The translations under genes and the position numbers were made by a program. From an uncultured Weeksellaceae bacterium (GTDB taxonomy: Bacteria; Bacteroidota; Bacteroidia; Flavobacteriales_D; CAZDUI01), in assembly GCA_964508605.1 (NCBI GenBank), contig CAZDUI010000005.1, positions 49,254 through 113,253 on the forward strand: a stretch of DNA of 64,000 nucleotides, given 5' to 3'. Position 1 is the first letter of the stretch; every line of letters starts with the position of its first letter. Under the pieces are notes generated by a model. The model worked only from the letters and a program-made list of their open reading frames with translations, did no database searches and had not been told where the DNA came from. This document shows positions 13-15,493 of the stretch, piece after piece.

Positions 13-804
13 ATGTTGCTGCATTCGGTTCGCTGCAATGCCTATCCCGGAGGGGAAACCTTTAAAAAGGCAAAAGTTCTTTACGAACAAGATGACTTCA
101 ACGCTGCAATTCATCTTTACAAACAGTGCATCATAGAAAATCCTGAAGTATATAATTCAAAAGGAAATTATATGATTGCCTTATGCTACAAAAAAATGGA
201 CCGTTGCAGTGAATCTATCCGATTTTTTAAAAGAGCCTGGCTAGCCGACAGCACAACCGGTGGCGCAAGCAGTCCTGAAAAATTCAAAGAACAACTGGAG
301 GCATGTCATATCACAAAACAAAAACTTCTGGCATTTGACGAGAACAGCCCTGAAGTAGAAACTGTTACAGAAACCGAGTTGAACAATCGTGTTACGCCCC
401 CCGAATACAACGAGCAGACAGTATCAAAAGACTACAATGATGAATCTACTGAAGAAAATAGTAACTATACGTGGCTTTGGTTAACCGGTGGCGCATTTTT
501 TATTCTGGTAATAATATATTATGTTGTAAAGAGGAACAAAGCACGCAGGGAAGTTCAGGAAACGGAAGAAACAACAAACTACAGGAAAAACGAATTATTA
601 TTCAGGTGTAGTGATATACTGTTTTCTGATGCCTATTGGACACCTCTTTACGATAGATTCGGGCAGGAAATAGTTGAAAGAAAACGACAAGAATGGACGG
701 AAGAGTACTCCAGACAATCTGAAAACCCGAATCAGATAGCCATAGAAAGTCTAACCAGCGATTTGGAGGATTTTGTGAAGAATCCTGAAAATCATTTATT
801 TTAA
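13..804 (+). CDS. TPR-module membrane protein (probably 5'-truncated by the window edge)
   Basis: The frame is open to base 1 (LIFIMLLH...). TPR-like helices (AKVLYEQDDFNAAIHLY; YMIALCYKKMDRCSESIRFFKRAW) are followed by an acidic linker, one TM helix (WLWLTGGAFFILVIIYYVV) and a basic stop-transfer segment. Confidence 0.75.
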   Translation: MLLHSVRCNAYPGGETFKKAKVLYEQDDFNAAIHLYKQCIIENPEVYNSKGNYMIALCYKKMDRCSESIRFFKRAWLADSTTGGASSPEKFKEQLEACHITKQKLLAFDENSPEVETVTETELNNRVTPPEYNEQTVSKDYNDESTEENSNYTWLWLTGGAFFILVIIYYVVKRNKARREVQETEETTNYRKNELLFRCSDILFSDAYWTPLYDRFGQEIVERKRQEWTEEYSRQSENPNQIAIESLTSDLEDFVKNPENHLF

Positions 805-809
805 TCGAT

Positions 810-2816
810 ATGAATACAATGTACATTATCGGTTTTTTAGTCCCTGTTATATTAGGTCTCTTTCTGGATATCCGGAAATGGCGCAAGATGCTAATACAAG
901 CGCTAAATCCTCAGGATTTTGATCTTAATGGAAAAATCAGTTATCAATTCACAGGGATTTACAGAGAATATAAAAAAAGCCAATTGTATTTAAATTATTA
1001 TAATACAACATTACCGCGTCAACCAAAAATTTCTCAGGAAAAGGCAATAAAAAGAAGAGCGGGAATACTTTCACTTTATAACTACTACCTGGCAGAATCG
1101 TGGACCCACGGACATACTAAAAATATTTACACAGCCGAACTGGGTAAATTTTCTAATAAAATATCTAAGGGTAATTATCGTAAAATTTATTACGGTATAT
1201 TACTTTTTTTAATAGGATTTACATTGTCCATGCAATTAATAGCGCAAAGTAATCTGCAAAAGGATAGTTATTATTTAAAAGCTGAATTATCATATTCCAA
1301 TAAAAAATATGATGAAGCAATTAAAAATTTTAAATTGGCAAAAGCTGTAAATGATAAAGATTCGTGTACGATACATTATAAAATAGCACTGTGTTTTAAT
1401 AAAATTCAAAAATGTGATTCAGCCCTGGTGTACTACAAAAGAGCATGGCAGCTTAATTCAGATAACGGAGGGGCTTCATCGCGCCAGAAATTCATTGATA
1501 AACTGGGGGAATGCGGTTATACTTTGAACGATTTAACCGGCAAAACTGAGGACATTAAAGATGTAGCAAGCGAAAACTACTACAAGTTAAAGATGAAAGA
1601 AGCCGATAATTATTACCGAAATGGAAATTATCATGAAGCTTTATCATTACTTGAAGAAATTGAAATATCAGGCACTCTGGATTACTCAGCCGTTTTCAAT
1701 TATAAAATGGCAATAACACTGGGTAAGCTGAATGACTGTTATGAAGCGAATATCTATTTTGAAAGAGCCCTATCTCTTGATCCTGACAAGGGAGGTGCTT
1801 CAACGCGCGAAAAATTCGATAAAGCCAGCGGAAAATGCGGATTTCAACAAAGCGGAACAGGCACAGACAACTCGCAATATGAAAGCGACGACGATTCTCC
1901 TGAATTCGGAATGGTCTTATTATCAATATTCTTAGGACTTATTGCACGCTTCATTTTATATTTTGTACTTGATTCACTGAAAAAAAGAAACGTAAGAGCA
2001 GTGGGTTCTAAATTTGCCGAACCTGTATACCGCGAAGCAGCTAACACAGAATTTTGGGCAGGATTATCCCGCAAAGGCTTCAGTGCCGATCAAATTGCTG
2101 ATATTAAAAACATGGTCAGGAATATTTCAAGACGACCCGAGATAAACCATACCACCAACGAAGGAATTGCCTTTGCCAAATTACTGAATCACTTTATACA
2201 AAACCCGGAGAATTATTTACCGGGTGATCCAAGATTCAATTATTTATGTTTACATGGATTTTACAATTATTTTAAGTCGGGATTTTACTGTTTTTTTACC
2301 TCAGAGATTATTGAAGACCGGAAAGCCATGGTGGTTAAAATTAAATACAATCATCACGAACCGGTTTTGGTGTGGGTATGTCCTTCAATTATGAAGCGAA
2401 TTAACAATAAAGCGCCATTAAAAGTAAGGGTACACATGGTAAACGAAGTATATACACATTGGAGCAACGACACCAAATATCACAATCCATGGTCGGATGT
2501 AGATAATCACGGTGTAATTTCAAAATCTGACTGGCAGGGTGAATTTAAAACCATTGACATTGAAAAATACCACGAACTTTTCACCAATTTTCCTGCAAGA
2601 TACCGAAGGCCGCATCCGGATTCCTTTGTTAATATGGAACTAGCCTATACAGAATTAAATACTAATACAATACATAAAACCGGAAAAAAATCGGATACAA
2701 ATAGCACTCTGCGGCAGGGTATTCAAAACGATTCCGATTCTGCAGCCGGAGATTTATTAATGGCTTCGGCCATAGGACACGAAATAAGTCATGACCGGAT
2801 TGCAGACATCTCCTGA
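810..2816 (+). CDS. Three-TM membrane protein with two TPR modules and an uncharacterised C-terminal domain
   Basis: Hydrophobic segments near aa 4-20, 127-145 and 366-388. Two TPR-like modules are homologous to the one in the upstream ORF. Confidence 0.75.
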   Translation: MNTMYIIGFLVPVILGLFLDIRKWRKMLIQALNPQDFDLNGKISYQFTGIYREYKKSQLYLNYYNTTLPRQPKISQEKAIKRRAGILSLYNYYLAESWTHGHTKNIYTAELGKFSNKISKGNYRKIYYGILLFLIGFTLSMQLIAQSNLQKDSYYLKAELSYSNKKYDEAIKNFKLAKAVNDKDSCTIHYKIALCFNKIQKCDSALVYYKRAWQLNSDNGGASSRQKFIDKLGECGYTLNDLTGKTEDIKDVASENYYKLKMKEADNYYRNGNYHEALSLLEEIEISGTLDYSAVFNYKMAITLGKLNDCYEANIYFERALSLDPDKGGASTREKFDKASGKCGFQQSGTGTDNSQYESDDDSPEFGMVLLSIFLGLIARFILYFVLDSLKKRNVRAVGSKFAEPVYREAANTEFWAGLSRKGFSADQIADIKNMVRNISRRPEINHTTNEGIAFAKLLNHFIQNPENYLPGDPRFNYLCLHGFYNYFKSGFYCFFTSEIIEDRKAMVVKIKYNHHEPVLVWVCPSIMKRINNKAPLKVRVHMVNEVYTHWSNDTKYHNPWSDVDNHGVISKSDWQGEFKTIDIEKYHELFTNFPARYRRPHPDSFVNMELAYTELNTNTIHKTGKKSDTNSTLRQGIQNDSDSAAGDLLMASAIGHEISHDRIADIS

Positions 2817-3963
2817 TAAGCTACGCATAATGTGTTATGCCATGAACGGTCTTGGGTTGGGGCATCTAACCCGATTGCTGGCCATTGCAATTCAGCTAAA
2901 AAGAATAAATCCCAATTGTGAAATATTATTTGTTACTACATCAGAGGCCGACAACGTTTTGAACCGATATGGTATCCCGTATGTCCATCTTCCCAGCAAA
3001 AAACTGGCAGGTACCGGAACCATCGGAGCAAAAAAACTGGCACGTATCTATAATGCGCTAATTAATCCGCTACTAGATAACTGGCAACCACACATATTTA
3101 TTACTGACACACAGGTTACCGGCTCATTAAACGACACTTTGCATTACCTAAGATACAGCAATTCCTATAAAGTATTTATACATCGCAGCCGAAAACCGGA
3201 ATCTTATACCCAGGCACAAATTCAAAGCCAGCGGTTTTACCATCTTATTATTGCACCTCATTACCCTCATCAATTTCTGGTTCCCGAGCCATTTGGATTC
3301 GAAGTTCCTGTTTTCTGGAGTGGACCCGTCTTATTAAAAAGCAAAGAGGAAACGCCTTCGCGGGATTCCATAAGACGAGAATTGAAGGTACAGCACCATG
3401 AAATTCTAATCTTTCTCTCGTTGGGAGGAGGAGGAGATGATTCTGACCCTGAAATTTTTGAAAAAGTACTTCCGGTTCTTAACCGATTTCAAAACATAAA
3501 AATATTGCTGGCAAGAGGGCTACTCTCTACATATTCTCTTACCGAGACTACTAACAACCTGATTGTAACCAGTATTTTTCCGGTATCGGATAGTTTTGCT
3601 GCGGTAGATATTGCCATTTCGGCTGCCGGATACAATACCTTTCATGAACTGATGCATCATGGGGTACCTACTATTTTCATTCCACGGGAAAGGGGCTGGG
3701 ATGACCAATATGAGCGCGCCAAACAAGCTGAAGTAAAAGATGCCTGTATGATTTGCCCTGCTGCCGACATTGAAATAAAACTAAACTTACTATTTGAAGA
3801 ACTGATGAATCCTCAGAAAAGAGATGCATTCCGTCTCAAAGCCTCAAGCTTAGTTCCTGAGAATAACGCAGAAAAGGTAGCCGCCGAAATTCTATCCTCA
3901 TACTCCCGCCGAATACAGGATTACAACTATAATAATGGAACAGAGACTTCTGAATTACCATAA
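2791..3963 (+). CDS. GT-B fold glycosyltransferase (MurG/GT28-like, COG4671-type)
   Basis: N-terminal YAMNGLGLGHLTR motif, central SLGGGG loop, C-terminal AISAAGYNTFHE and PTIFIP...DDQYERA nucleotide-sugar-binding signature. Confidence 0.85.
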   Translation: MTGLQTSPDKLRIMCYAMNGLGLGHLTRLLAIAIQLKRINPNCEILFVTTSEADNVLNRYGIPYVHLPSKKLAGTGTIGAKKLARIYNALINPLLDNWQPHIFITDTQVTGSLNDTLHYLRYSNSYKVFIHRSRKPESYTQAQIQSQRFYHLIIAPHYPHQFLVPEPFGFEVPVFWSGPVLLKSKEETPSRDSIRRELKVQHHEILIFLSLGGGGDDSDPEIFEKVLPVLNRFQNIKILLARGLLSTYSLTETTNNLIVTSIFPVSDSFAAVDIAISAAGYNTFHELMHHGVPTIFIPRERGWDDQYERAKQAEVKDACMICPAADIEIKLNLLFEELMNPQKRDAFRLKASSLVPENNAEKVAAEILSSYSRRIQDYNYNNGTETSELP

Positions 3964-4963
3964 TAATGAAGTTCCTGTACTGGGGCCGGAATCGATTGGA
4001 ATCGTTCCAATAAATGCATGCAATTTAAATTGTATTTCCTGTTGGACGTATTCGGCATTGAATCCTAAAAAACCTGATTTATCATGGCAAAGGCAAATTC
4101 TGCCTTTTGATATTATGAGCAGGACACTGAAAGAGCTACATGAATTAGGTACCAAAAGGATTATTTTAACCGGAGGAGGCGACCCACTGGTATATCCGCA
4201 TTTTAAAGAATCCATTGAACTTATTGCTTCATTAAAATTAAAAAGTACTTTAATATCCAACCTGACACTAGTAAAACACAAGCAACATTTTCTTGAACAC
4301 TTGCCCGACACAATTCTCGCAAATTTTTCGGCTGCCGATGCTGAAAGTTATGTAGCCTTTCATCCCAATCGGAATAACTCCGATTTTGATAAATTGCTCT
4401 CACTGCTGGAAAGTATCTCTGCAAGGAAATGTAATTTAAAACTGGTTTTTGTAGTATGTAGTTTGAATTATCATCTTATAGATAAGGTAGTTCATATTGC
4501 TGCAGCCCTGAAGGCTGCTATCCAGTTTAAGCTAATGAGCCCGTCGGAATTTAACACCGAGTTAATTTTGAGTCCACAACAAAAACTATATCTGTATTCA
4601 CAATGCGATTCTTTGCTATTACTTGCCCAACAGTTAGAGGTTTCAGTGAACATTACTACTTTAAAACATCAGTTATCCGGAGAACGATTGCATGATTTTC
4701 CTATTGATAAAACAGGTTGTTTTGCAGGCTATTATTACAGCAGAATAAAAGCCGACGGAAGTGTCTGGTTTTGTTGCAACCCTTATTCCGAGCTAAAAAG
4801 AGGTTCGTTACATCAGCAAACTTTCAGTGAAATATGGAATAGTAAACATTACCAGAATATTAGAACACAAATGTATAACAGACAATTTGTTCAGGGTTGC
4901 AATACATGCGGTAAATTTCAGTTGAATGTTTCAAAATCAGAGTTATATAAAAATCAGATATGA
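3935..4963 (+). CDS. Radical SAM enzyme with C-terminal SPASM/twitch domain
   Basis: CNLNCISC (CxxxCxxC) motif and TGGGDPL SAM-binding motif. C-terminal CFAGYYYSRIKADGSVWFCC...GSL...FSEIWNS...CNTC. Confidence 0.9.
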   Translation: MEQRLLNYHNNEVPVLGPESIGIVPINACNLNCISCWTYSALNPKKPDLSWQRQILPFDIMSRTLKELHELGTKRIILTGGGDPLVYPHFKESIELIASLKLKSTLISNLTLVKHKQHFLEHLPDTILANFSAADAESYVAFHPNRNNSDFDKLLSLLESISARKCNLKLVFVVCSLNYHLIDKVVHIAAALKAAIQFKLMSPSEFNTELILSPQQKLYLYSQCDSLLLLAQQLEVSVNITTLKHQLSGERLHDFPIDKTGCFAGYYYSRIKADGSVWFCCNPYSELKRGSLHQQTFSEIWNSKHYQNIRTQMYNRQFVQGCNTCGKFQLNVSKSELYKNQI

Positions 4964-5530: not shown

Positions 5531-8500
5531 TTGATCTGCATGAAAACATCATTCGTATTAATTCTATGGTTTCTATCGGTTTATACTATAACAGCGCAAA
5601 AAAATGAACCCCCATATTCAATACAAAGCTCACAGTTAAGTGGATTAAAATGGCGTTCTATTGGTCCGGCGGTTGCATCGGGCAGAATTGCTGATATTGC
5701 AGTGAACGATAAAAAGCCCGGAGAATATTTTCTGGCCATCGCATCGGGCGGAATTTTCAGAACCCGCAACTGGGGGATAACTTATGAGCCTGTTTTTGAC
5801 AATTATGGGTCGTACAGTACCGGGTGCATTACTATCAGTCCGCACAATCCTAATGAGGTATGGCTTGGAACCGGTGAAAACAATAACCAGCGCAGTGTAG
5901 CATACGGCGACGGAGTTTACAGGAGTTTGGATGGAGGAGATTCATGGAGTAATATGGGGCTTAAAGAAAGCGAACATATCCATAAAATAATCATTCACCC
6001 AGATTCTTCTGAGGTTATCTATGTTGCTTCCTGTGGACCATTATGGAAAGATGGCGGCGAGCGCGGGGTGTACAAATCCAAAGACGGAGGTAAAACCTGG
6101 AAGCGAATCCTTCATATTTCCGACAAAACAGGTGTTACAGATCTGATAATGGATCTTACCAATCCAAAAGTTATGTATGCTGCGGCGCATCAGCGCCGAC
6201 GCCACGTATGGACTTATATTGGCGGAGGCCCTGAATCAGGAATTTACAAAACCACAAACGCTGGAATTACTTGGGAAAAAGCAAATAATGGACTTCCTGA
6301 CAGCGACATAGGCAGAATTGGCCTGGCCATTTCTCCGGTAAATCCTGAAACGATTTACGCAATTGTAGAAGCAGCATTAGGAAAAGGTGGATTCTTTAAA
6401 ACCACCAATCGCGCTGCTTCTTGGCAAAAACAAAGCGACTTTAATACCAGTGGAAATTACTACCAAGAAATTATTTGCAGTCCCCACGACGAAAATCTTG
6501 TATTCGCTATGGATACCTGGTTACATCATACTGAAGATGGCGGTAAAACATTTAAAATGACCGGTGAAAAAAGTAAGCATGTGGACAATCACTGTATGTG
6601 GATAGACCCTGCCAATAAAAACCATTGGTTAGTAGGCACCGATGGCGGGCTTTACGAAACCTATGATGCTGCTGAGAACTGGCAATTTAAAACCAATTTG
6701 CCGGTTACACAGTTTTACAAAGTAACCGTTGACGATGCGAAACCATTCTACTATATATACGGAGGAACCCAGGATAACAATAGTTTAGGAGGACCCTCAC
6801 GCAGTATTAATAATGCCGGGGTGCATAATCAAGACTGGTTTATTACCAATGGCGGCGATGGTTTTGAATCGGCAGTTGAACCCGGAAATCCTGATATTGT
6901 ATACGCTCAGGCCCAATATGGCTGGCTGGTGCGTTACGATAAAAAGAGCGGTGAAACTTTACCTATCCAACCACAACCTTCCGGCGATCAGCCTGCCTTT
7001 AGATGGAATTGGGATGCACCTCTTGTAATTAGTCCACACAATCCGCAAAGACTCTATTTCGCCTCACAATTCGTATTTCAAAGTGACGATCGCGGTAGTA
7101 CCTGGAAAACCATTAGTGGAGATTTGTCGAGAGGTATTGACCGTAATAAACTACCAGTAATGGGAAGAGTGTGGAGTGTGGATGCAGTAATGAAAAATCA
7201 AAGTACTTCCATTTATGGCAATATTACCGCACTTGATGAATCACCTAAACTAGAGGGGCTTTTGTACGCCGGAACTGATGACGGCTTGATTCACGTAAGC
7301 GAAAATGGCGGTGAGAAATGGAACAGATTGAATAATTTTGCAGAAGTACCTGAAAACACTTATGTAAATCAAATTGTAGCTTCACAACACGATGCAAATA
7401 CTGTTTTCGCAGTATTCAACAATCATAAAAACGGGGATTTTAAACCATATATTGTTGTAAGCACCAATAAAGGAAAAACCTGGAGGTTAATTTCAGGCGA
7501 TCTTCCATTACGTGGCACGGTGTATTCCATTGCTCAGGACCACCAGAACAAGGATTTACTCTTTTGTGGTACAGAATTCGGTTTCTATTTTACCATTAAC
7601 GGCGGAAAAAACTGGGTGCAGCTTAAATCCGGTATGCCCACTATTGCGATTAAAGACATTGCCATTCAAAGGTCAGAAAATGATATCGTAATCGCATCTT
7701 TCGGTCGTGGTTTTTTTATTCTTGACGACTATTCTCCTTTGAGAAGCCTTTCACCGGAAATTCTGAACAAAGACGCCTACCTGTTCCCTGTAAAAACAGC
7801 TTTGGCTTATATGGAAAGTAGTCCTTTGGGGCTTACCGGCAAGGGACATCAGGGTGAGAGTTTTTATACAGCACCCAACCCTCCCGTTGGTGCAGTTTTT
7901 TCGTTTTACCTGAAAAATGATTTAAAATCTTCAACTCAAACAAGGCATGCAACTGAAAAAGAAGCTGCTGCTGCGGGAAAAGATACTCCATACCCTACCA
8001 TGGAACAACTTAGAAAGGAAGACAATGAAGAATCACCTTTTTTGCTTTTTATAATAAGTGATCAGAATGGCCGGGCTATTAAAAAAATTAAAGCCAATCC
8101 TTCCAAAGGATTACAAAGAATTGTTTGGAATTTTAAAACGCAAACCACAACACCCGTTAAAATAAGTGAGCCGGAACCCGGAAGATACGATTCACCAGAT
8201 GATGGATTTATGGTATTACCTGGGACATATCAGGTAGCGGTTTATAAAATTGAAAATGGAATTTCTTCTTTACTGGTTCCAAATCAAAAATTTGAAGTCC
8301 AATGGTTACAGCAACATACACTTCAAACAAATGACAAACAAGCTTTGGATAATTTTCTTGTAAAATTGAGTGAGTTAAGAAGAAGAGTTTCCGGAGCGGG
8401 AAGTATGTATTACGAAATCAAACAAAGAATTTCACACATCAATGCAGCCATATATAAATACCCTACCCTACCACTGGAACTTAAAAGTAAAATAACGGAA

Positions 8501-8806
8501 ATTACCGATTTACTGAATACTTTCAGCACTGTACTATATGGCGACAGAACACTCAGTAAACGTGAATTTGAAACCCGCGACGGTTTATCCTCCAGAATTG
8601 AGCTCATAGTCTGGACTCAGTTCTCAGGTACATCAGCGCCTACTTCAACAAGCCTGAAGGCATACGAAGAAGTGAATAAAGCATTTGACGAAACCCTGAG
8701 TAAATTACAAAAAGCATTAACCATGACCGAAGACCTTGAAAAAAGACTTGACAGTTACGGAGTTCCTTATACTCCTCAACGTGGAAAAACCTGGAAAAAC
8801 GATTAG
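5531..8806 (+). CDS. BNR/Asp-box repeat beta-propeller protein (VPS10/sortilin-like, often annotated glycosyl hydrolase)
   Basis: Signal peptide, WRSIGP...GRI start, many S/T-x-D-G-G-x-T-W Asp-boxes (SLDGGDSW, SKDGGKTW, TEDGGKTF, SDDRGSTW, TINGGKNW) and a C-terminal coiled coil. Confidence 0.88.
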   Translation: MICMKTSFVLILWFLSVYTITAQKNEPPYSIQSSQLSGLKWRSIGPAVASGRIADIAVNDKKPGEYFLAIASGGIFRTRNWGITYEPVFDNYGSYSTGCITISPHNPNEVWLGTGENNNQRSVAYGDGVYRSLDGGDSWSNMGLKESEHIHKIIIHPDSSEVIYVASCGPLWKDGGERGVYKSKDGGKTWKRILHISDKTGVTDLIMDLTNPKVMYAAAHQRRRHVWTYIGGGPESGIYKTTNAGITWEKANNGLPDSDIGRIGLAISPVNPETIYAIVEAALGKGGFFKTTNRAASWQKQSDFNTSGNYYQEIICSPHDENLVFAMDTWLHHTEDGGKTFKMTGEKSKHVDNHCMWIDPANKNHWLVGTDGGLYETYDAAENWQFKTNLPVTQFYKVTVDDAKPFYYIYGGTQDNNSLGGPSRSINNAGVHNQDWFITNGGDGFESAVEPGNPDIVYAQAQYGWLVRYDKKSGETLPIQPQPSGDQPAFRWNWDAPLVISPHNPQRLYFASQFVFQSDDRGSTWKTISGDLSRGIDRNKLPVMGRVWSVDAVMKNQSTSIYGNITALDESPKLEGLLYAGTDDGLIHVSENGGEKWNRLNNFAEVPENTYVNQIVASQHDANTVFAVFNNHKNGDFKPYIVVSTNKGKTWRLISGDLPLRGTVYSIAQDHQNKDLLFCGTEFGFYFTINGGKNWVQLKSGMPTIAIKDIAIQRSENDIVIASFGRGFFILDDYSPLRSLSPEILNKDAYLFPVKTALAYMESSPLGLTGKGHQGESFYTAPNPPVGAVFSFYLKNDLKSSTQTRHATEKEAAAAGKDTPYPTMEQLRKEDNEESPFLLFIISDQNGRAIKKIKANPSKGLQRIVWNFKTQTTTPVKISEPEPGRYDSPDDGFMVLPGTYQVAVYKIENGISSLLVPNQKFEVQWLQQHTLQTNDKQALDNFLVKLSELRRRVSGAGSMYYEIKQRISHINAAIYKYPTLPLELKSKITEITDLLNTFSTVLYGDRTLSKREFETRDGLSSRIELIVWTQFSGTSAPTSTSLKAYEEVNKAFDETLSKLQKALTMTEDLEKRLDSYGVPYTPQRGKTWKND

Positions 8807-8887: not shown

Positions 8888-8895
8888 TACTTTTG
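8888..8895 (+). promoter_or_regulatory. Bacteroidota -7 promoter element (TACTTTTG) of the putative EPS operon
   Basis: Exact TAnnTTTG match 9 nt upstream of the ATG at 8905. The ORF caller's TTG start at 8893 lies inside it. Confidence 0.65.
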
Positions 8896-8904
8896 CAACC
8901 CCAA

Positions 8905-11004
8905 ATGAGAATTGCAAAAGCGATATTCCAGTTTTTCATTATGCTTACCGCATCCTATTCTGCTTTTTCTCAGGCAGACAGTACCATTCAGCAATTAATA
9001 ACCCAATGGCGTCATTTGGTATCACAGGTACCCACCAGTCCCGTTGTTGTAGACTCTAACGAATTGAATACACTTTTGAGATATGTTCCCGGACAATTTA
9101 CCCATGCAGGCAAATACGAACGATACTACAACACTGCACAAATGGAGTATTTAAAAAGGGATATTGGTTTAAATATACAGGCTGGTTATCTTGAAAATTT
9201 CTCGCCTGCTTTGGAAGATGTTGACGACAACGTTGTATACTACCGTCGTGCTCAGGCCGGTGTGCAGTGGAATATTCTAAACAACGGATTTGTTGAATCG
9301 CGTTCCAGAATTCGCGAACTGGAATATGAAAACCAACTTTTACACTTAAAAGAAAAAACTGAAAATTCCAAGCATCAGTATTTTGTTAAATGGGAAGGAA
9401 CTATGGCCGCTTTCAACCATAGCAAACTGGCATTGCTGGACCGAAGAAAAAAAATTCTGGACGCACTTTCTTCTTCGGGAATGCAATTACACCATTTAAA
9501 TTTACTGAGCAGGGAAGATTATTTAAAGACCGAAGCAAGGGTAGCCGAACTGCAGGCACTCTATACCGTTTACGGGGGCTTTGACAAGTATACCCTTTCT
9601 GACGGTTTTCTTGCAACAATAGATGCCGGAAAAATAGTACCAAAAGCTATTGATTACGCTGCACTGTTAGCCAATATCCATGCTTCAGCAGACAGCACAG
9701 CACATTACATCGCACTTATTTTTGATGAGAAGAACCATTGGACCCGAACTGTGAGTGCGTCGGTATTTACCCGCTATAACCTGTACGACCTTACCGGTGC
9801 TCCTCCCTCCATGAGAAGTTTCGGTTCGGCAGGTGTTAACATCTCGGTTCCCATTCGGTTTCGTTCTAAACAACAAAAAATATTAAAAAATGCATGGCTG
9901 GAAATGGAGCAGCAAAAGAACAACGAAATGCAAAAAGGGCTACACAAACAACTGGCAACCGAGCTTTATGAATACGATTACAGGTTACGACAATATGTAG
10001 ATTTAATTAGTAAAAGGAAAGTTTTTATTGAACTTTTAAGAAAGGATATAGCCCGTGCTTCTGTTCCCGGTTTCAACTTTAACCCATATTCTGCACTGCT
10101 TTTACTTGACGACATAACGCGTATAGATATTGAAATGCTTGACATTACTCAAAACATTACGCTCCGGCTTATTAGAATTAATGAGTATTACAAAGGAAAT
10201 TCGCCGTCCGATTATCTGGTAGACATTCCGGAACAACCTGAAAATTCTGCTACGTCTCCAATAAATGCAGTTTATATCTGGAGTAAAACTCTGGAAAAAT
10301 ATGGTGCCGATTATGTGGTGCAATACCTTACGTTTACCCGTTTTAACACCATCGTGCTAGCTGCCTATCAAAATGACCCACAGGCAGAAATCAAGAAAAA
10401 ATTATTAGCCCTAACCGATTCACTATCAATTGACGGACATTTAATGCTGGGCGACAATAAATTAATAAATCTTTCAAATAGCGACTTTGAAAAAATACTT
10501 ACGGCAATTCACAACGATTATAAAAGTGTTAATATAAAAGGGATACATCTTGACATTGAACCTCAAACACTTCCTGATTATGAAACACGCAAAACTGAAT
10601 TACTGGGTAAGCTGGTAACGTTAATACAAACAGCGAACAACTACTGTTCTCAACAAAATTTAAGTTTAACGGTTTCCATACCGCTGCATTACCCGCAGGA
10701 TATAATTTCAGCAATAATGAAAGACTGTCATCAGGTGTATTTTATGGCCTACGAAAATGTAAAACAAGAATACATTCTCCGTAAAATTCAACCCTGGATG
10801 AATGATCCCGTCACGGCAAATAAAATTGTGATCGCATCGCGAACCGATGACTTTTTAAATCCTGCTACACTTTACGAACATCAGAATAAAATACTAAATT
10901 CAGCACCGGGAATCGCCGGTGCAGCTCTGCATGATTTGGGCAGATTAATAATGATGGAGGAGAATCTGATTCGGGTACTTCCCGAAAAGGGAGGTAATCC
11001 TTGA
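8905..11004 (+). CDS. TolC/OEP-like outer-membrane protein fused to a C-terminal GH18-like TIM-barrel domain
   Basis: Signal peptide (…ASYSAFSQ). Two OEP-like beta-hairpin plus coiled-coil repeats (GLNIQAGY…AQAGVQWNIL…LLSREDYLKTEARV; SASVFTRY…GVNISVPI). From about 10261: AVYIWS…GIHLDIEP…VYFMAYE. Start moved from TTG 8893 to ATG 8905. Confidence 0.7.
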   Translation: MRIAKAIFQFFIMLTASYSAFSQADSTIQQLITQWRHLVSQVPTSPVVVDSNELNTLLRYVPGQFTHAGKYERYYNTAQMEYLKRDIGLNIQAGYLENFSPALEDVDDNVVYYRRAQAGVQWNILNNGFVESRSRIRELEYENQLLHLKEKTENSKHQYFVKWEGTMAAFNHSKLALLDRRKKILDALSSSGMQLHHLNLLSREDYLKTEARVAELQALYTVYGGFDKYTLSDGFLATIDAGKIVPKAIDYAALLANIHASADSTAHYIALIFDEKNHWTRTVSASVFTRYNLYDLTGAPPSMRSFGSAGVNISVPIRFRSKQQKILKNAWLEMEQQKNNEMQKGLHKQLATELYEYDYRLRQYVDLISKRKVFIELLRKDIARASVPGFNFNPYSALLLLDDITRIDIEMLDITQNITLRLIRINEYYKGNSPSDYLVDIPEQPENSATSPINAVYIWSKTLEKYGADYVVQYLTFTRFNTIVLAAYQNDPQAEIKKKLLALTDSLSIDGHLMLGDNKLINLSNSDFEKILTAIHNDYKSVNIKGIHLDIEPQTLPDYETRKTELLGKLVTLIQTANNYCSQQNLSLTVSIPLHYPQDIISAIMKDCHQVYFMAYENVKQEYILRKIQPWMNDPVTANKIVIASRTDDFLNPATLYEHQNKILNSAPGIAGAALHDLGRLIMMEENLIRVLPEKGGNP

Positions 11005-12095
11005 AGAGTGTAAATTTCAAAAGAAAACCTTCTGTATTAAGATACAGTGAGGAAGCGAAAAAAAATGCACGCAAACCCATCAACTGGGATAGGATTATCT
11101 ATTTCATCTTTTTTGGTGCAGGCTTTCTATTTTTAGTAAACTACCTGTGGAATTACTCTGTATATATTACTGCATACGGTGAAGTATTATTTGACAAGTT
11201 GGATATCAGGTACGAGAACGACTGCACCCTTGAAAATATTTATGTAAGTGAAGGCGATTCCATTGAAATTGGAGATACCTTATTTAGTTTTCACGACAGA
11301 GGCGACCGCATTGACCTGAACGGCAACGAAACCTCTGTAAGTATTACACAGTCTTCAGGAAAAACACCCGAATGGCTGGAGCGTGAAATACTGATTACTG
11401 AAAAAAACATTCGCCTTGCGCAGATACAGGCTGCATCGGCCCGCAACCGCGCTGCCTTGCTGGAACGCGAATTTCAAAATCAGTTAAACCAGGTAGTGTT
11501 AGAAGTATCAACCCGGGGAAGATTAAATCAGATTGAAGAAAGTATTGCCCTGGAGCAGGCCGATGCCATGAAATACGATAGCGAAGCTGGCTATTATGCT
11601 GCATATCTGGCAAAACTAAAAAACATGATGGCTACAAACAATAACACTTCTACACAAATTGCCAATCCTGTAGACGCGCCAAATGGAGGTGATGCCAGTT
11701 ACGAGCCGGATATCAGATATTTTATATCTCCGGTAAAGGGCACCATTACCAATATTGAAAAAAGACCTTACGAAGTGGCATTGCGCACAGAAATTATTCT
11801 CTCGGTTCATGAACCAGAAAATATTTATATTAAAGGTTATTTTGATCAGGATGATTTATCTGAGCTCACCATAGGAGACGAAGTGGATGTATTATTTCCG
11901 GATGGTACTTCAAGTACCGGTGTTATTAAACAATTCTACTTTGCAACCTTCAGGTTGCCCGACGAATTTCAAAAGAAATACGAACCCACCACCCGAACCT
12001 TAAGTGCAGATATTTATCCGGTAGATGAAACAGAACTTAAAAAATGGCGGGCATTTTATAAAATGGGCGTAGAAATCAGAAAATCGAAATACTGA
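11001..12095 (+). CDS. HlyD-family periplasmic adaptor (membrane fusion protein)
   Basis: N-terminal TM, lipoyl half-motif (ENIYVSEGDSIEIGDTLF), coiled-coil hairpin, second half-motif ISPVKGTITNI and a beta-barrel (DLSELTIGDEVDV). Confidence 0.85.
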   Translation: MKSVNFKRKPSVLRYSEEAKKNARKPINWDRIIYFIFFGAGFLFLVNYLWNYSVYITAYGEVLFDKLDIRYENDCTLENIYVSEGDSIEIGDTLFSFHDRGDRIDLNGNETSVSITQSSGKTPEWLEREILITEKNIRLAQIQAASARNRAALLEREFQNQLNQVVLEVSTRGRLNQIEESIALEQADAMKYDSEAGYYAAYLAKLKNMMATNNNTSTQIANPVDAPNGGDASYEPDIRYFISPVKGTITNIEKRPYEVALRTEIILSVHEPENIYIKGYFDQDDLSELTIGDEVDVLFPDGTSSTGVIKQFYFATFRLPDEFQKKYEPTTRTLSADIYPVDETELKKWRAFYKMGVEIRKSKY

Positions 12096-13525
12096 TGCAA
12101 ACACTGGAACTTGAAGACGAAGGATTGGTAGTTCGGTATGGAGACCTCAGATTCCGAATTATAAACGAAACAATGGGTTTCAATGGCGACCATCTGGCCG
12201 TTTATGACGCTCTTTTAATTGAATCTTCAGACACCTACTTTGTTGGCAGCATCATTACCATGTTGCGCAGCAGCATGAATACCCAGATATATTTAAAACC
12301 TGTGTTTCTTTTGAAAGGGACTGCCAATCGGGATCCGTTTATTAATGCCCTGGTAGACGGGATGCTTTTTGCAGCCGAACAGGTAAAAATTATCGCTCCA
12401 CAGGTACAACGCATTATTTCCCGCATTAACGACCTGAATTTTAGCACAGCTATAAGCTATGAAGCACAGGTAATTAGCAAGGTTGCTCACTATATGTATA
12501 CCCGTGAACTGACCCGCATAGACCCTATACCCTACAATTATTCGGGCATTGGCTATACTTTTCCTCCCATATCGGTAAATTATAAATTTCGTGAAGAAGC
12601 TCAGGTTTTAAATGTAATTGCCGTTGCTGAAGAAGAGGGCATTTTTAACACTACATTTCACGATCGCATATATCTGTGCACCAATTGTCATACCGGCTTC
12701 ATGAGTTTCAGGGAAGTATGTCCTAAATGTGCTTCCTCTAACAGCGAAAGTCAGGACATTATACATCATTTTAGGTGTGGTTATGTTGCGCCTCTATCAG
12801 ATTACAGCAATGCAATTGACGATCAGTTGAACTGTCCCAAATGCAATAAACAATTAAGGCATATTGGAGTTGATTACGACAAACCATCGGTTTTACACTC
12901 TTGCCGAAATTGTGGCCATAAATATCAGGATTTCGTGGTAAAGGCTAAGTGCGTTACTTGCTCTTTTGACAACGAAGTAGATCAGCTTGTGTATCATGAG
13001 GTAAAATCACTTGAAATTACGAAAAAGGGCGAGTTGGTTGCTACCCATGGGTACGTTAGTACAAGTAAAGACCTTGAAGAAATTATAGGCACCGTAAAGA
13101 TGGACGTTTTCCGGACGATGCTGCGTTATGAAATTGAAAGGCTTAAACAAACTGAAGGTCATAGTAATATAGCAGGTGTATTCATAAGTAATGCCGGTGA
13201 ATTTTACAGTAAAATAGGAAGCAGTATGGAACAGGCTTTACTTAAAGACCTGGTTGAAGTGGTTAGGGGAAACATCAGAACTTCAGACATGATTACTTTT
13301 AAGGACTCTTCTACTCTACTGCTAAGTATGAACGATATCCCTCAAAAGGTTGGTGAAAACATAATGGAAGAAATTGTACAGTTAATATTAAAACTATTAA
13401 ATACCAATTTCCCAAACCTGAATATTCAAATAAAATACGCAGTAAAACAGGTGCATGCTAAATTAAATCACGAATTACAGATTCAGCAATTACTGCAACA
13501 GGTATATACCGATGTTCAGTCTTGA
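12095..13525 (+). CDS. REC-like / multi-Zn-ribbon (TackOD1-like) / degenerate GGDEF-like protein
   Basis: YDALLIE…MLRS…LKPVFLL resembles a REC fragment. CTNC, CPKC, HFRC, CPKC, CRNC and CVTC motifs at 12677-12961. C-terminal MLRYEIER…NIRTSDMIT resembles a GGDEF fold with RxxD retained and GGDEF lost. Confidence 0.65.
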   Translation: MQTLELEDEGLVVRYGDLRFRIINETMGFNGDHLAVYDALLIESSDTYFVGSIITMLRSSMNTQIYLKPVFLLKGTANRDPFINALVDGMLFAAEQVKIIAPQVQRIISRINDLNFSTAISYEAQVISKVAHYMYTRELTRIDPIPYNYSGIGYTFPPISVNYKFREEAQVLNVIAVAEEEGIFNTTFHDRIYLCTNCHTGFMSFREVCPKCASSNSESQDIIHHFRCGYVAPLSDYSNAIDDQLNCPKCNKQLRHIGVDYDKPSVLHSCRNCGHKYQDFVVKAKCVTCSFDNEVDQLVYHEVKSLEITKKGELVATHGYVSTSKDLEEIIGTVKMDVFRTMLRYEIERLKQTEGHSNIAGVFISNAGEFYSKIGSSMEQALLKDLVEVVRGNIRTSDMITFKDSSTLLLSMNDIPQKVGENIMEEIVQLILKLLNTNFPNLNIQIKYAVKQVHAKLNHELQIQQLLQQVYTDVQS

Positions 13526-14819
13526 AGATTTTTTAAATTACGTTCAAACTGTTGGAGGTGATAAACTTCTAAGAATATTCTGGTTTTTTGTGATCTTTGA
13601 ATTCTTCAGGTATGTATTTATTGAATTTATTACCCTTTGCTGGTGGCAATTCAAACAATGGACAGGAAAGGACAAAGTGCAAAAAGCCCGGGATGAATTA
13701 ATGTTTGAATACCCGCTGGTTTCCATTATTATTCCTGGAAAAAATGAAGGTAAACACCTTTTTAAATTAGTTCAGTCACTGGAAGAACAAACGTACAGAA
13801 ATTATGAAATTATTGTAATTGATGACGGATCAGACGATGACACCCCAACTATAGGTAGAACGCTGGAAAAAAAGGGAATTATTACCCGCTTCCTTCGCAA
13901 CGAAATTCGCGGGGGTAAGGCATCTGCAGCCAATTTGGGCTTGCGCTTTGCAAAAGGCAAATTTGTTGTTCACCTGGATGCCGACTGCTCATACGACCGG
14001 GATGCTATTGAAAAAATACTGATACCCTTCTACTTAGACGACCAGGTGGGAGCTGTGGGTGGAAACGTGATGGTAAGAAATTATCGGGACAGCCTGGCTA
14101 CTGCACTGCAGGCCATAGAGTATACCGATACAATTTCCACAGGCCGCATCGTATCCAGCCAACTTGGCATATATCGTATTATTTCAGGTGCCTTTGGGGC
14201 TTTTAGAATGGACGTTTTACAAAAAATAAAAGGGTGGGACATTGGTCCCGGCCTGGATGGTGATATTACCGTAAAGGTGCGCAAACTGGGTTATAAAATA
14301 AAATTTGCCGACCAGGCCGTTTGTTTAACAAGTGTCCCTGACACTTTTAAAAAACTTTCTAAACAACGCCTAAGATGGGATAAAAGTATTGTAAGATTCA
14401 GGTTGCGCAAGCACCGCGACGTATTTATGCCGAATCATTCTTTCCGACTGGTAAACTTTATTGGATTTGTTGAAAACGTAACCTACAACATTTTACTGAA
14501 CATAAAATGGTATGTGTACATTATTGATATGATTGTGAATTTCTTCAGCCTTCTTCAGTTCATTGTTCTTGCCAATTTCTTTCTTTACACGGTAAACAAC
14601 TATGTAAAACTGATGGTATTCTCATTATTCAGAAAACGTCAGCACATTCCAATTTGGTACATGCTGTTGTACATTCCCCTGATGGTCTTTTACTTCGGTT
14701 TGTTCCTGCGTATTATCAGAACAAAAGCCTACTTACAGGAATTCTTATTCAAGGCTTCTTATAAGGATCCATGGAATCCGGCAAAAACTTCAAGGCAGGC
14801 AAAAGAAATTGGTATCTGA
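13512..14819 (+). CDS. Processive GT2 polysaccharide synthase (PgaC/IcaA/cellulose-synthase-like)
   Basis: VSIIIPGKNE, IDDGSDD, GGKASAAN, LDADC (DxD), SGAFGAFR and QRLRW (QxxRW). One N-terminal and several C-terminal TM helices. Confidence 0.9.
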   Translation: MFSLEDFLNYVQTVGGDKLLRIFWFFVIFEFFRYVFIEFITLCWWQFKQWTGKDKVQKARDELMFEYPLVSIIIPGKNEGKHLFKLVQSLEEQTYRNYEIIVIDDGSDDDTPTIGRTLEKKGIITRFLRNEIRGGKASAANLGLRFAKGKFVVHLDADCSYDRDAIEKILIPFYLDDQVGAVGGNVMVRNYRDSLATALQAIEYTDTISTGRIVSSQLGIYRIISGAFGAFRMDVLQKIKGWDIGPGLDGDITVKVRKLGYKIKFADQAVCLTSVPDTFKKLSKQRLRWDKSIVRFRLRKHRDVFMPNHSFRLVNFIGFVENVTYNILLNIKWYVYIIDMIVNFFSLLQFIVLANFFLYTVNNYVKLMVFSLFRKRQHIPIWYMLLYIPLMVFYFGLFLRIIRTKAYLQEFLFKASYKDPWNPAKTSRQAKEIGI

Positions 14820-14941: not shown

Positions 14942-14949
14942 TACATTTG
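14942..14949 (+). promoter_or_regulatory. -7 promoter element (TACATTTG)
   Basis: Exact TAnnTTTG match 13 nt upstream of the ATG at 14963. Confidence 0.6.
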
Positions 14950-14962
14950 CGCAAAATATTAA

Positions 14963-15493
14963 ATGACAACCAAGGCTAAATTAAATCAGTTACACAGCAT
15001 GCTGCTTAGTGGTAAAGAAGCCGACATGTTGGAAGCATTAAAGGGATTGCGCAACGAAGGCACAGCAGACACCCTATTAATCATGGCAGCCATCCTTAAA
15101 ACAGGGTGTACGACTTCTGTGGCCGAATCCATTGAAAAAATGTTGATGGAACTGAAAATTAAAGAAGCTGTTCCCACTTTAATAAATTTGCTTGAGAATA
15201 AAGACTATAAAGAGCAGCACGAGTTATTTGCACGTGCCCTGTGGAGCAGCGGGCTGCCGGTTGGAGAATACCTGCCCCGACTGGCCGAAGTGATGATTCA
15301 CGCCGATTATCTGGCAGCATTTGAATGTTTGACTGTTTTAGAAAATTTAATAGAAATTCCTGAGGAGGAATTTCTTAATGAAGCTCAACTCGTATTTGGC
15401 ACCTATCTTCAATCAAAGGAAGTAGTACAGGAGACAAAACATATAATAACATTGGGATTACAATGCGTAACCGATATGGTGAGAAATTCTTAA
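14963..15493 (+). CDS. HEAT-repeat-like hypothetical protein
   Basis: All-helical pattern (EALKGLRNEG…AVPTLINLL…ARALWSSG…FECLTVLENL). Confidence 0.65.
   Translation: MTTKAKLNQLHSMLLSGKEADMLEALKGLRNEGTADTLLIMAAILKTGCTTSVAESIEKMLMELKIKEAVPTLINLLENKDYKEQHELFARALWSSGLPVGEYLPRLAEVMIHADYLAAFECLTVLENLIEIPEEEFLNEAQLVFGTYLQSKEVVQETKHIITLGLQCVTDMVRNS

Follow-up and report, generated by a model that had tools for sequence, protein, structure and literature searches.

The 64,000-nucleotide stretch of contig CAZDUI010000005.1 from an uncultured Weeksellaceae bacterium analyzed here (the window, to which all positions refer) contains a cassette of about 6 kb with four co-directional genes, A to D, which lie on the forward strand between positions 8905 and 14819. 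According to the open reading frame (ORF) list, gene A (8905–11004) encodes a protein of 699 amino acids, gene B (11001–12095) one of 364, gene C (12095–13525) one of 476 and gene D (13512–14819) one of 435. The reading frames overlap: the stop codon of A is shared with the TTG start of B in the sequence TTGA (11001–11004), the stop of B and the start of C are joined in TGATG (12093–12097), and the end of C overlaps the start of D by 14 nucleotides (13512–13525). An earlier annotation made from the DNA letters (the original prediction) had reported both the common orientation and the coupled junctions, and these read exactly as it claimed. The products comprise a synthase, an adaptor, a channel, a hydrolase-like domain and a sensor, and are considered below as a candidate module for the synthesis and export of an exopolysaccharide.

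An alternative TTG start for gene A is found at 8893. The ATG at 8905 is the likelier start because translation from it yields MRIAKAIFQFFIMLTASYSAFSQ, a predicted signal peptide resembling those of most homologues, and because the TTG lies within a promoter-like box. For gene B, the conserved N-terminus MKSxNFKRK of the product, with K2 and F6 invariant, argues in favour of the TTG start. The box itself, TActTTTG (8888–8895, forward strand), is of the Bacteroidota -7 type and lies 9 nucleotides upstream of the ATG of A. Across the window, its motif occurs no more often than expected (75 matches versus 77), so that one copy carries little evidential weight. In 19 of 77 homologous loci, an exact match is nevertheless present in the 80 nucleotides that precede the first ATG of A, compared with 5% of random 80-nucleotide stretches. 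The TAnnTTTG element that had been placed in front of the cassette is thus present and positionally enriched upstream of A homologues, although the motif as such is unenriched in the window overall. The next gene downstream has a box of its own at 14942–14949. Scans for sigma-70-type promoters and intrinsic terminators gave hits at chance level only, and a search in and around the window cassette revealed no Rfam element, cyclic di-GMP (c-di-GMP) riboswitch or notable repeat.

Protein A consists of a signal peptide (residues 1–23), a TolC-family outer-membrane-factor domain (approximately residues 24–430), a linker and a (β/α)8 barrel (residues 453–691). The Pfam family OEP scores 19.4 bits on the window protein (cut-off 22) and matches 20 of 36 homologues, with a best E-value of 1.8e-6. 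An AlphaFold2 (AF2) monomer model was computed from a 5-sequence alignment, with a predicted local distance difference test (pLDDT) score of 73.6 and a predicted template modelling (pTM) score of 0.45. It displays two repeats, each built of a β-hairpin, a helix of about 65 residues and a shorter helix, followed by a C-terminal part of eight alternating strand/helix units with a pLDDT of about 90. In a Foldseek search of the PDB with this model, TolC-family channels occupy all of the top 38 places (E-values of 4e-9 to 1e-5); they include TolC, ST50, CmeC, OprN, OprM, CusC, SilC, VceC and MtrE.

The barrel constitutes a TIM-barrel glycoside-hydrolase-like domain (10261–10977, forward strand) that is predicted to be periplasmic. 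In Foldseek comparisons it resembles chitinases of glycoside hydrolase family 18 (GH18; 5y2c, E = 2.8e-5) and the C-terminal GH153 domain of PgaB (4p7o_A, E = 4.3e-5). A profile of 36 A sequences matches PDB entry 10yv_A, a 'putative GH97' from Cellulomonas fimi, with an E-value of 1.3e-3 over the segment hLDvEPhTl.dW. The similarity of the profile to a GH18 chitinase is weak by sequence (E = 1.9, against approximately 3e-5 by fold), and the barrel has no Pfam GH18 match. The motif GIHLDIEP (residues 546–553; 10540–10563, forward strand) is located at the end of barrel strand 4 and aligns with the GH18 motif DGIDxDWE; D550 and E552 are invariant. With respect to the DxDxE of GH18, the HLDIE of protein A keeps DxE, and the aspartate two residues earlier is replaced by histidine. 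A second motif after strand 6, MAYE (residues 614–617), is aligned with LMAYD of chitinase 3g6l. Of the 18 barrel positions with at least 95% conservation among 76 sequences, 17 map to the strands or to the residues directly following them, which is the usual catalytic face of a TIM barrel. In the model, protein A is a secreted TolC-family protein with a C-terminal GH18/GH153-like TIM barrel whose predicted catalytic face is conserved.

Word-indexed homologue searches with protein A, using either the single sequence or the 36-sequence profile, returned 5 proteins. An exhaustive HMMER search with a threshold of E ≤ 1e-30 recovered a fusion family of 340 clusters (50% identity); among the 150 best matches listed, the majority are full-length fusions of 650–720 amino acids. 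The fusion is therefore a real family that the word-indexed searches overlooked. Three members (P0152, P0156 and P0206) carry an N-terminal Ycf48/BNR extension, a small propeller, and two others (P0199 and P0263) have a peptidoglycan-binding SPOR domain at the ends where the barrel attaches. The SPOR fusions, as read from the sequences, agree with periplasmic appendages near the cell wall. The BNR/sortilin gene upstream of the cassette (5531–8806) was considered as a part of the system on account of the propeller-type extensions, and was rejected, as it has no homologue in the flanks of the other loci.

Protein B has a conserved cytoplasmic tail of 30 residues, a transmembrane helix (residues 32–50), a lipoyl-like domain, a coiled-coil hairpin and a β-barrel. 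Its matches to the NCBIfam models type_I_hlyD and EmrA all fall under the cut-offs, and the window protein alone scores 18.3 against a Pfam cut-off of 22.2. Its homologues are recognized by HlyD_3 in 15 of 15 cases, by HlyD_D23 in 9 and by Biotin_lipoyl_2 in 4. The family profile matches, in the PDB, the HlyD-type membrane fusion protein (MFP) 8dck (E = 8e-5), EmrA 4tko (E = 2.7e-4) and MacA. From these profiles and the predicted topology, protein B is an MFP of the HlyD/EmrA type with a single transmembrane helix. The cytoplasmic tail is unusually conserved, and residues K2, F6, N28, W29, D30 and Y34 are invariant in the homologue alignment.

Protein C comprises an N-terminal α/β domain, a TackOD1 multi-zinc-ribbon region (residues 123–306; PF18551, E = 3.8e-48) and a degenerate GGDEF domain (approximately residues 325–470), and has no transmembrane helix. 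Its AF2 model has a pLDDT of 82.8, and the C-terminal portion of about 150 residues superimposes on the GGDEF domains of DosC, WspR, PleD and others with template modelling scores of 0.65–0.76 (Foldseek). The Pfam GGDEF model matches 14 of 20 homologues. An inhibitory-site (I-site)-like RTSD (residues 395–398) is followed, after five residues, by DSSTL (residues 404–408) at the position of the GG[DE]EF motif (13277–13318, forward strand). R391 does not vary in the alignment of 20 sequences, and R395 and D398 are conserved to at least 90%; none of the 20 contains GG[DE]EF, and one homologue (P0068) has PTSS instead of RxxD. This register agrees with that of the PleD GGDEF domain by hhalign, in a weak comparison (E = 0.25). 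Judged by these residues, the GGDEF domain of protein C cannot be a cyclase, and it keeps a predicted RxxD inhibitory-site motif while the cyclase site is lost.

The N-terminal domain of protein C (residues 1–120; 12095–12460) is well modelled. It may represent a degenerate receiver, since archaeal TackOD1 domains come after receiver domains, and the resulting REC*-TackOD1-GGDEF* layout would be reminiscent of the REC*-GGDEF* arrangement of BcsE. The describers of TackOD1 reported it from response regulators of archaea and from thaumarchaeal type IV pilus loci, and called its function obscure (PMC5847659). A literature search under 'TackOD1' returned nothing past the original description of the domain.

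Protein D, of 435 amino acids, is the sole polytopic inner-membrane protein of the cassette according to transmembrane prediction, with helices at both ends. It matches the Pfam families Glycos_transf_2 (E = 4e-29) and Chitin_synth_2 (E = 6e-12), and contains the motifs DDGSDD (residues 104–109), DAD (156–158), GDIT (250–253) and QRLRW (285–289), all of which are invariant in 72 homologues. The best NCBIfam match is PgaC_IcaA (TIGR03937), with 164 bits against an equivalog cut-off of 422; further matches are to the NodC and chitin-synthase families. The score against CelA is 22 bits (cut-off 699), and protein D has no PilZ domain. By its sequence, protein D is a PgaC-like processive glycosyltransferase of family 2 (GT2) with every catalytic motif. 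The original prediction had described the four products as a TolC-like/hydrolase fusion, an HlyD adaptor, a Zn-ribbon/degenerate-GGDEF protein and a processive GT2 with QRLRW. All four assignments stand: the fold of an OEP protomer was found for protein A (E = 4e-9 to TolC-family channels), B is recognized by family and PDB profiles, C contains both TackOD1 and the GGDEF fold, and QRLRW occupies residues 285–289 of D.

The neighbourhood was surveyed in Bacteroidota starting from protein C. One genome per species was scanned, relatives of C were detected in 414 species genomes, and the best 80 loci were fetched; the synteny survey by ORF and hidden Markov model (HMM) analysis covers 86 loci from 80 Bacteroidota genomes. 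Homologues of protein C fall into at least 636 protein clusters, the majority of them from Crocinitomicaceae, Fluviicola, Brumimicrobium, Crocinitomix and unclassified Flavobacteriales. The order A(fused)-B-C-D and the common strand are intact in 72 of the 86 loci. The remaining 14 comprise 10 that end at a contig edge (one of them also with a split ORF), 2 that are complete with one gene split into two ORFs, and 2 that hold the same remnant of A. The order is thus kept in all informative loci, and no locus lacks a gene that was expected to be visible. Identity to the window proteins is 25–34% for A and 40–55% for C, and the flanks vary, the commonest flanking family being present in 26 loci only. 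The combination of low identity, different flanks and a fixed order implies selection on the cassette rather than recent common descent. Cultured carriers include Crocinitomix catalasitica ATCC 23190, Crocinitomix algicola, Brumimicrobium oceani and B. glaciale. The original prediction had proposed a check of gene-neighbourhood conservation across Bacteroidota, and had named a lack of co-occurrence and a first protein without the OEP fold as grounds for rejecting its interpretation. The four genes co-occur in a fixed order far beyond chance and protein A has a TolC-family fold, so that neither computational ground applies.

The cassette is also characterized by the components that it lacks. 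No gene for an ATP-binding cassette (ABC) transporter, Wzx, Wzy or a tetratricopeptide repeat (TPR) porin adjoins it in the window; the claim that a TPR-porin, flippase, Wzy and ABC transporter are missing therefore holds for its neighbours. At none of the surveyed loci does the cassette include a TPR-porin. No energizer of the ABC, major facilitator superfamily (MFS) or resistance-nodulation-division (RND) type is encoded in the cassette or its conserved flanks in approximately 80 loci, and no counterpart of PgaA, of the PgaB N-terminal domain or of PgaD was found within the cassette.

We propose, with moderate confidence and on the basis of the predicted protein families, that the four genes constitute a self-contained module for synthase-dependent exopolysaccharide synthesis and export in Bacteroidota (Crocinitomicaceae, Fluviicola, Brumimicrobium and relatives). 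Protein D would polymerize a sugar nucleotide and push the chain across the inner membrane. It would occupy the position of an ABC, MFS or RND pump, beneath a ring of protein B docked to a trimer of protein A, and chain growth would drive the polymer into the duct formed by the adaptor and the TolC-like channel. We infer the threading of the polymer through this duct from the arrangement of the components. The nearest structural analogy would be EmrAB-TolC, in which one MFS protein lies under the EmrA ring. Protein C would bind c-di-GMP at its I-site and license the synthase, acting either via the conserved cytoplasmic tail of B or via the glycosyltransferase domain of D, a role that is likened to those of PelD, BcsE and the PilZ domain of Alg44. 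Control of the module by c-di-GMP is probable. The TIM barrel of protein A, at the periplasmic equator, may trim or clear escaped polymer (the task of AlgL, BcsZ and PgaB), hand the polymer over, or open or bind peptidoglycan. As for the product, both the affinity of D to PgaC, NodC and chitin synthases and the presence in the barrel of DxE and MxY[DE] motifs of the GH18 type hint, with low confidence, at a β-linked N-acetylhexosamine polymer. A PgaC-like synthase in the place of a pump, a dedicated TolC channel fused to a GH18-like enzyme, and a sensor composed of TackOD1 and a GGDEF domain with only the I-site could represent a further secretion architecture, to which we give an even chance.

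Export of a polysaccharide through an adaptor and a TolC-type channel has precedents. Cyanobacteria have an HlyD-like protein and a TolC-like exporter in place of BcsB and BcsC, with operons for the cellulose synthase XcsA, the HlyD-like protein XcsB and the endoglucanase XcsC (Maeda 2018, via PMC8892547, PMC12430437). For the mixed-linkage β-glucan of rhizobia (Sinorhizobium), made by BgsBA, tolC is essential for production and a tripartite complex was proposed in 2026 (PMC13438883). In neither the Xcs nor the Bgs system does the operon include the gene for TolC, and TolC could be acting indirectly in both (PMC12430437, PMC13438883). A 2025 review states that the TolC-tunnel model is without validation and is weakened by the separate tolC gene, and asks whether operon-organized clusters exist (PMC12430437).

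The Xcs system resembles the cassette in having a processive GT2 beside an HlyD-like gene, a glycoside hydrolase partner, a proposed exit through a TolC-family protein and a c-di-GMP input, and in the absence of BcsB, BcsC and a TPR-porin. It differs in several respects. The synthase XcsA is BcsA-like with a PilZ domain, whereas protein D is PgaC-like and has none. The tolC gene of Xcs is unlinked; here the operon itself encodes the channel, in fusion with a hydrolase-like domain. The hydrolase XcsC is an endoglucanase, in contrast to the GH18/GH153-like fold of the barrel, and the sensor of the cassette is a separate TackOD1/degenerate-GGDEF protein. Finally, the cassette belongs to another phylum. 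The Bgs system shares a GT2 synthase and an HlyD-family adaptor in one operon as well as c-di-GMP control. By contrast, BgsA is of the cellulose/curdlan-synthase-like type, which protein D does not match, and binds c-di-GMP itself; Bgs also uses a housekeeping TolC encoded elsewhere and has no hydrolase component (PMC13438883).

The PgaABCD (Pga/Ica) system, which makes poly-β-1,6-N-acetylglucosamine, is related through the synthase, as PgaC_IcaA is the best curated match of D, and through the barrel, whose fold is similar to the C-terminal GH153 domain of PgaB. A small GT2 licensed by c-di-GMP is common to both, in our case as proposed from sequence. The score of D is 164 bits against 422, and the cassette is without PgaD, a carbohydrate esterase family 4 (CE4) deacetylase and the TPR-porin PgaA, its export parts being an adaptor and a TolC-like channel instead. 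Among sensors, Listeria PssE is a degenerate-GGDEF I-site receptor of a polysaccharide system. PelD and BcsE likewise bind c-di-GMP at a GGDEF I-site, and resemble protein C in that their GGDEF fold retains RxxD but has lost the active site, and in being encoded within a synthase operon (BcsE as REC*-GGDEF*; PMC8892547). Protein C differs in lacking the GAF and transmembrane parts of PelD and the ATPase-like part of BcsE, and in carrying the TackOD1 multi-zinc-ribbon, which is undescribed in any polysaccharide system. The Alg8/Alg44 pair combines a GT2 with an inner-membrane protein that has a MexA/HlyD-like periplasmic part and cytoplasmic c-di-GMP sensing (PMC8892547). Alginate, however, exits via the AlgK/AlgE TPR-porin, and the PilZ sensor of Alg44 is fused to the adaptor, whereas here the sensor is separate and the adaptor has a short conserved tail. 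With respect to the Bcs/Pga/Alg/Pel class as a whole, protein D provides the membrane-embedded processive GT2, and the TPR scaffold and β-barrel porin are absent from the cassette. With respect to tripartite efflux and type I secretion, the features of an HlyD/EmrA adaptor are present and the ABC, RND or MFS energizer is absent from the cassette and its conserved flanks.

Several points weigh against the export model. Both termini of TolC-family proteins are located at the periplasmic equator, outside the tunnel, and a barrel fused there would consequently lie outside the sealed duct, with no reach to the threaded chain. Pure threading leaves the barrel fusion unexplained, which is its chief weakness; a role in clearance, hand-over or peptidoglycan processing fits a barrel outside the duct better. 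The identity of the polymer is drawn from family resemblance, and the function, the complex and ligand binding are deduced from sequence, fold and synteny. The window proteins A and B are just under the Pfam cut-offs (19.4 versus 22 and 18.3 versus 22.2), and the AF2 model of A derives from 5 sequences (pLDDT 73.6, pTM 0.45), with low confidence in the barrel strands. The published MFP-linked systems use BcsA-like synthases, of which protein D is not an orthologue (22 bits for CelA). Enzymes of c-di-GMP metabolism are sparse in Bacteroidota, and no ORF with GG[DE]EF was found in the window or in approximately 1.3 Mb of loci (86 loci), a weak result that is uninformative genome-wide. The position of the barrel would also be accounted for if A and B formed an envelope-spanning scaffold, or a device for anchoring or remodelling the wall. 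The barrel would then bind or cut peptidoglycan, and the polymer made by D would be periplasmic, wall-associated or released by another exit. GH18-fold enzymes that act on peptidoglycan exist, such as SleL/YaaH, and two A homologues have SPOR peptidoglycan-binding domains, in line with a barrel predicted by TolC topology and the model to lie at the equator outside the tunnel. We consider this scaffold unlikely, since protein A retains the full two-repeat channel architecture over hundreds of clusters and the cassette has no other outer-membrane component. A periplasmic hydrolase is, moreover, found in true export systems as well, namely BcsZ, PgaB, AlgL and XcsC (PMC8892547, PMC12430437).

The nature of the cargo allows another explanation, in which D makes short oligosaccharides or a glycolipid, comparable to the chito-oligosaccharides of NodC, and B and A expel a small-glycan signal rather than a matrix polymer. 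The matches of D to the NodC and chitin-synthase families are consistent with it, as is the usual cargo of MFP/outer-membrane-factor systems, which consists of small molecules or unfolded proteins. It is nonetheless very unlikely, given that no ABC, MFS or RND energizer accompanies the cassette in approximately 80 loci, that D has the full motifs of a processive synthase and C-terminal transmembrane helices, and that a fused endo-type hydrolase fold and a partner resembling a c-di-GMP receptor are typical of polymer systems. A third alternative concerns a single step and is compatible with the export model: protein C may not be a c-di-GMP receptor, its GGDEF domain binding GTP or another nucleotide or being structural, with regulation through TackOD1 or the N-terminal domain. 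This is possible, if doubtful. Signalling by c-di-GMP is sparse in Bacteroidota, no cyclase is encoded near any locus, and the homologue P0068 has PTSS in place of RxxD. Archaea are not known to use c-di-GMP. TackOD1 does occur in archaea, as the output of response regulators and in type IV pilus loci (PMC5847659). On the other hand, R395 and D398 are at least 90% conserved exactly five residues ahead of the GGDEF position, and PelD and BcsE use the same arrangement (PMC8892547). Chance adjacency of two unrelated pairs, an efflux adaptor with its channel and a glycosyltransferase with its regulator, would explain the mixed domain content and nothing more. The fixed order and the overlapping frames, to which none of 80 divergent genomes with differing flanks offers a counter-example, effectively refute it.

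The original prediction had called the system a candidate for an undescribed one. Its anatomy, the four domain assignments and the co-occurrence stand, but the novelty of the concept was overstated: a route through a synthase, an HlyD-like protein and TolC, absent from its list of known systems, has already been proposed for cyanobacterial cellulose (PMC8892547, PMC12430437) and for rhizobial glucan, there with genetic support (PMC13438883). No description of the module itself was found in the literature, including that on Crocinitomicaceae. New here are the dedicated channel encoded in the operon, its hydrolase-like fusion, the TackOD1/degenerate-GGDEF partner, the PgaC-like synthase lineage and the phylum Bacteroidota. 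How a polymer passes the periplasm and the outer membrane in synthase systems without porins of the BcsC, PgaA or AlgE type is an open question, and the cassette is an operon-organized cluster of the kind that the 2025 review asks for (PMC12430437). As a compact, conserved unit of 6 kb with cultured carriers, it makes TolC-duct polysaccharide export testable by structural and genetic approaches. If the export model is correct, the cassette would represent the first case in which a genetically self-contained operon encodes the export of a polysaccharide through a TolC tunnel, would provide the first function for TackOD1 and would constitute a c-di-GMP-controlled matrix system in Bacteroidota. 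It offers a first functional context for TackOD1, whose role its describers called obscure (PMC5847659), and suggests that surface glycans are controlled by a nucleotide second messenger in a phylum in which such control has been little studied.

Other genes in the vicinity of the window cassette do not accompany it elsewhere. The region 13–4963 encodes two weak-TPR proteins, a GT28-like glycosyltransferase and a radical-SAM/SPASM enzyme, none of them linked to the cassette in other genomes. The two weak-TPR proteins (13–2816) were considered as a porin scaffold and discarded, as they are not conserved neighbours and there is no barrel evidence for them. Downstream, a 176-residue ORF (14963–15493) has a TACATTTG box 13 nucleotides upstream, no family match and no conserved association with the cassette.

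The survey also revealed variations of the cassette. The remnant of A held by two loci (P0002; L005 and L006, 10001–11263) is a stand-alone relative of 420 amino acids, 46% identical to A, that begins at approximately residue 117 of A and loses similarity within the barrel; B, C and D do not follow. Judged from its sequence, it looks like the residue of a decayed cassette. It lies just downstream of a GT9 gene, and the same GT9 gene precedes A in 26 loci. In 17 loci (L001, 15917–18985, and 16 more), D is directly followed by a co-directional gene for a protein of approximately 1,000–1,040 amino acids. The L001 copy, the one that was scanned, overlaps the stop of D with its start and contains lamin-tail, chitobiase-C, CotH-kinase and type IX secretion system (T9SS) sorting domains; the protein may serve the system as an accessory at the cell surface. 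One subgroup has an extra GT2 gene directly upstream of A on the same strand (L062, 3531–4649, and 12 more loci: L063, L064, L067–L069, L071–L074, L078, L082 and L084). It measures 326–400 amino acids from stop to stop, approximately 330 in most loci, and a modified or heteropolymeric product is possible in these lineages.

In locus L076 (1088–3700), B and C are separated by an inserted gene for a secreted protein of 870 amino acids, which has PKD and T9SS C-terminal sorting domains and no family match over its first 600 residues. The strings THDVD and HSFGH suggested a CE4 deacetylase, which would hint at poly-N-acetylglucosamine; this assignment was dropped, as Pfam and PDB searches gave the PKD domain and T9SS tail only. 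A complete cassette, approximately 50% identical to those of Bacteroidota, is present on contig JBLFXO010000046.1 (L018), labelled as the gammaproteobacterium Arenicella sp.; the contig is probably misbinned rather than a case of transfer. In locus L019, the cassette, compact in other respects, is interrupted between C and D (9407–10322) by a 146-nucleotide tandem unit repeated 6.3 times with 93% matches.

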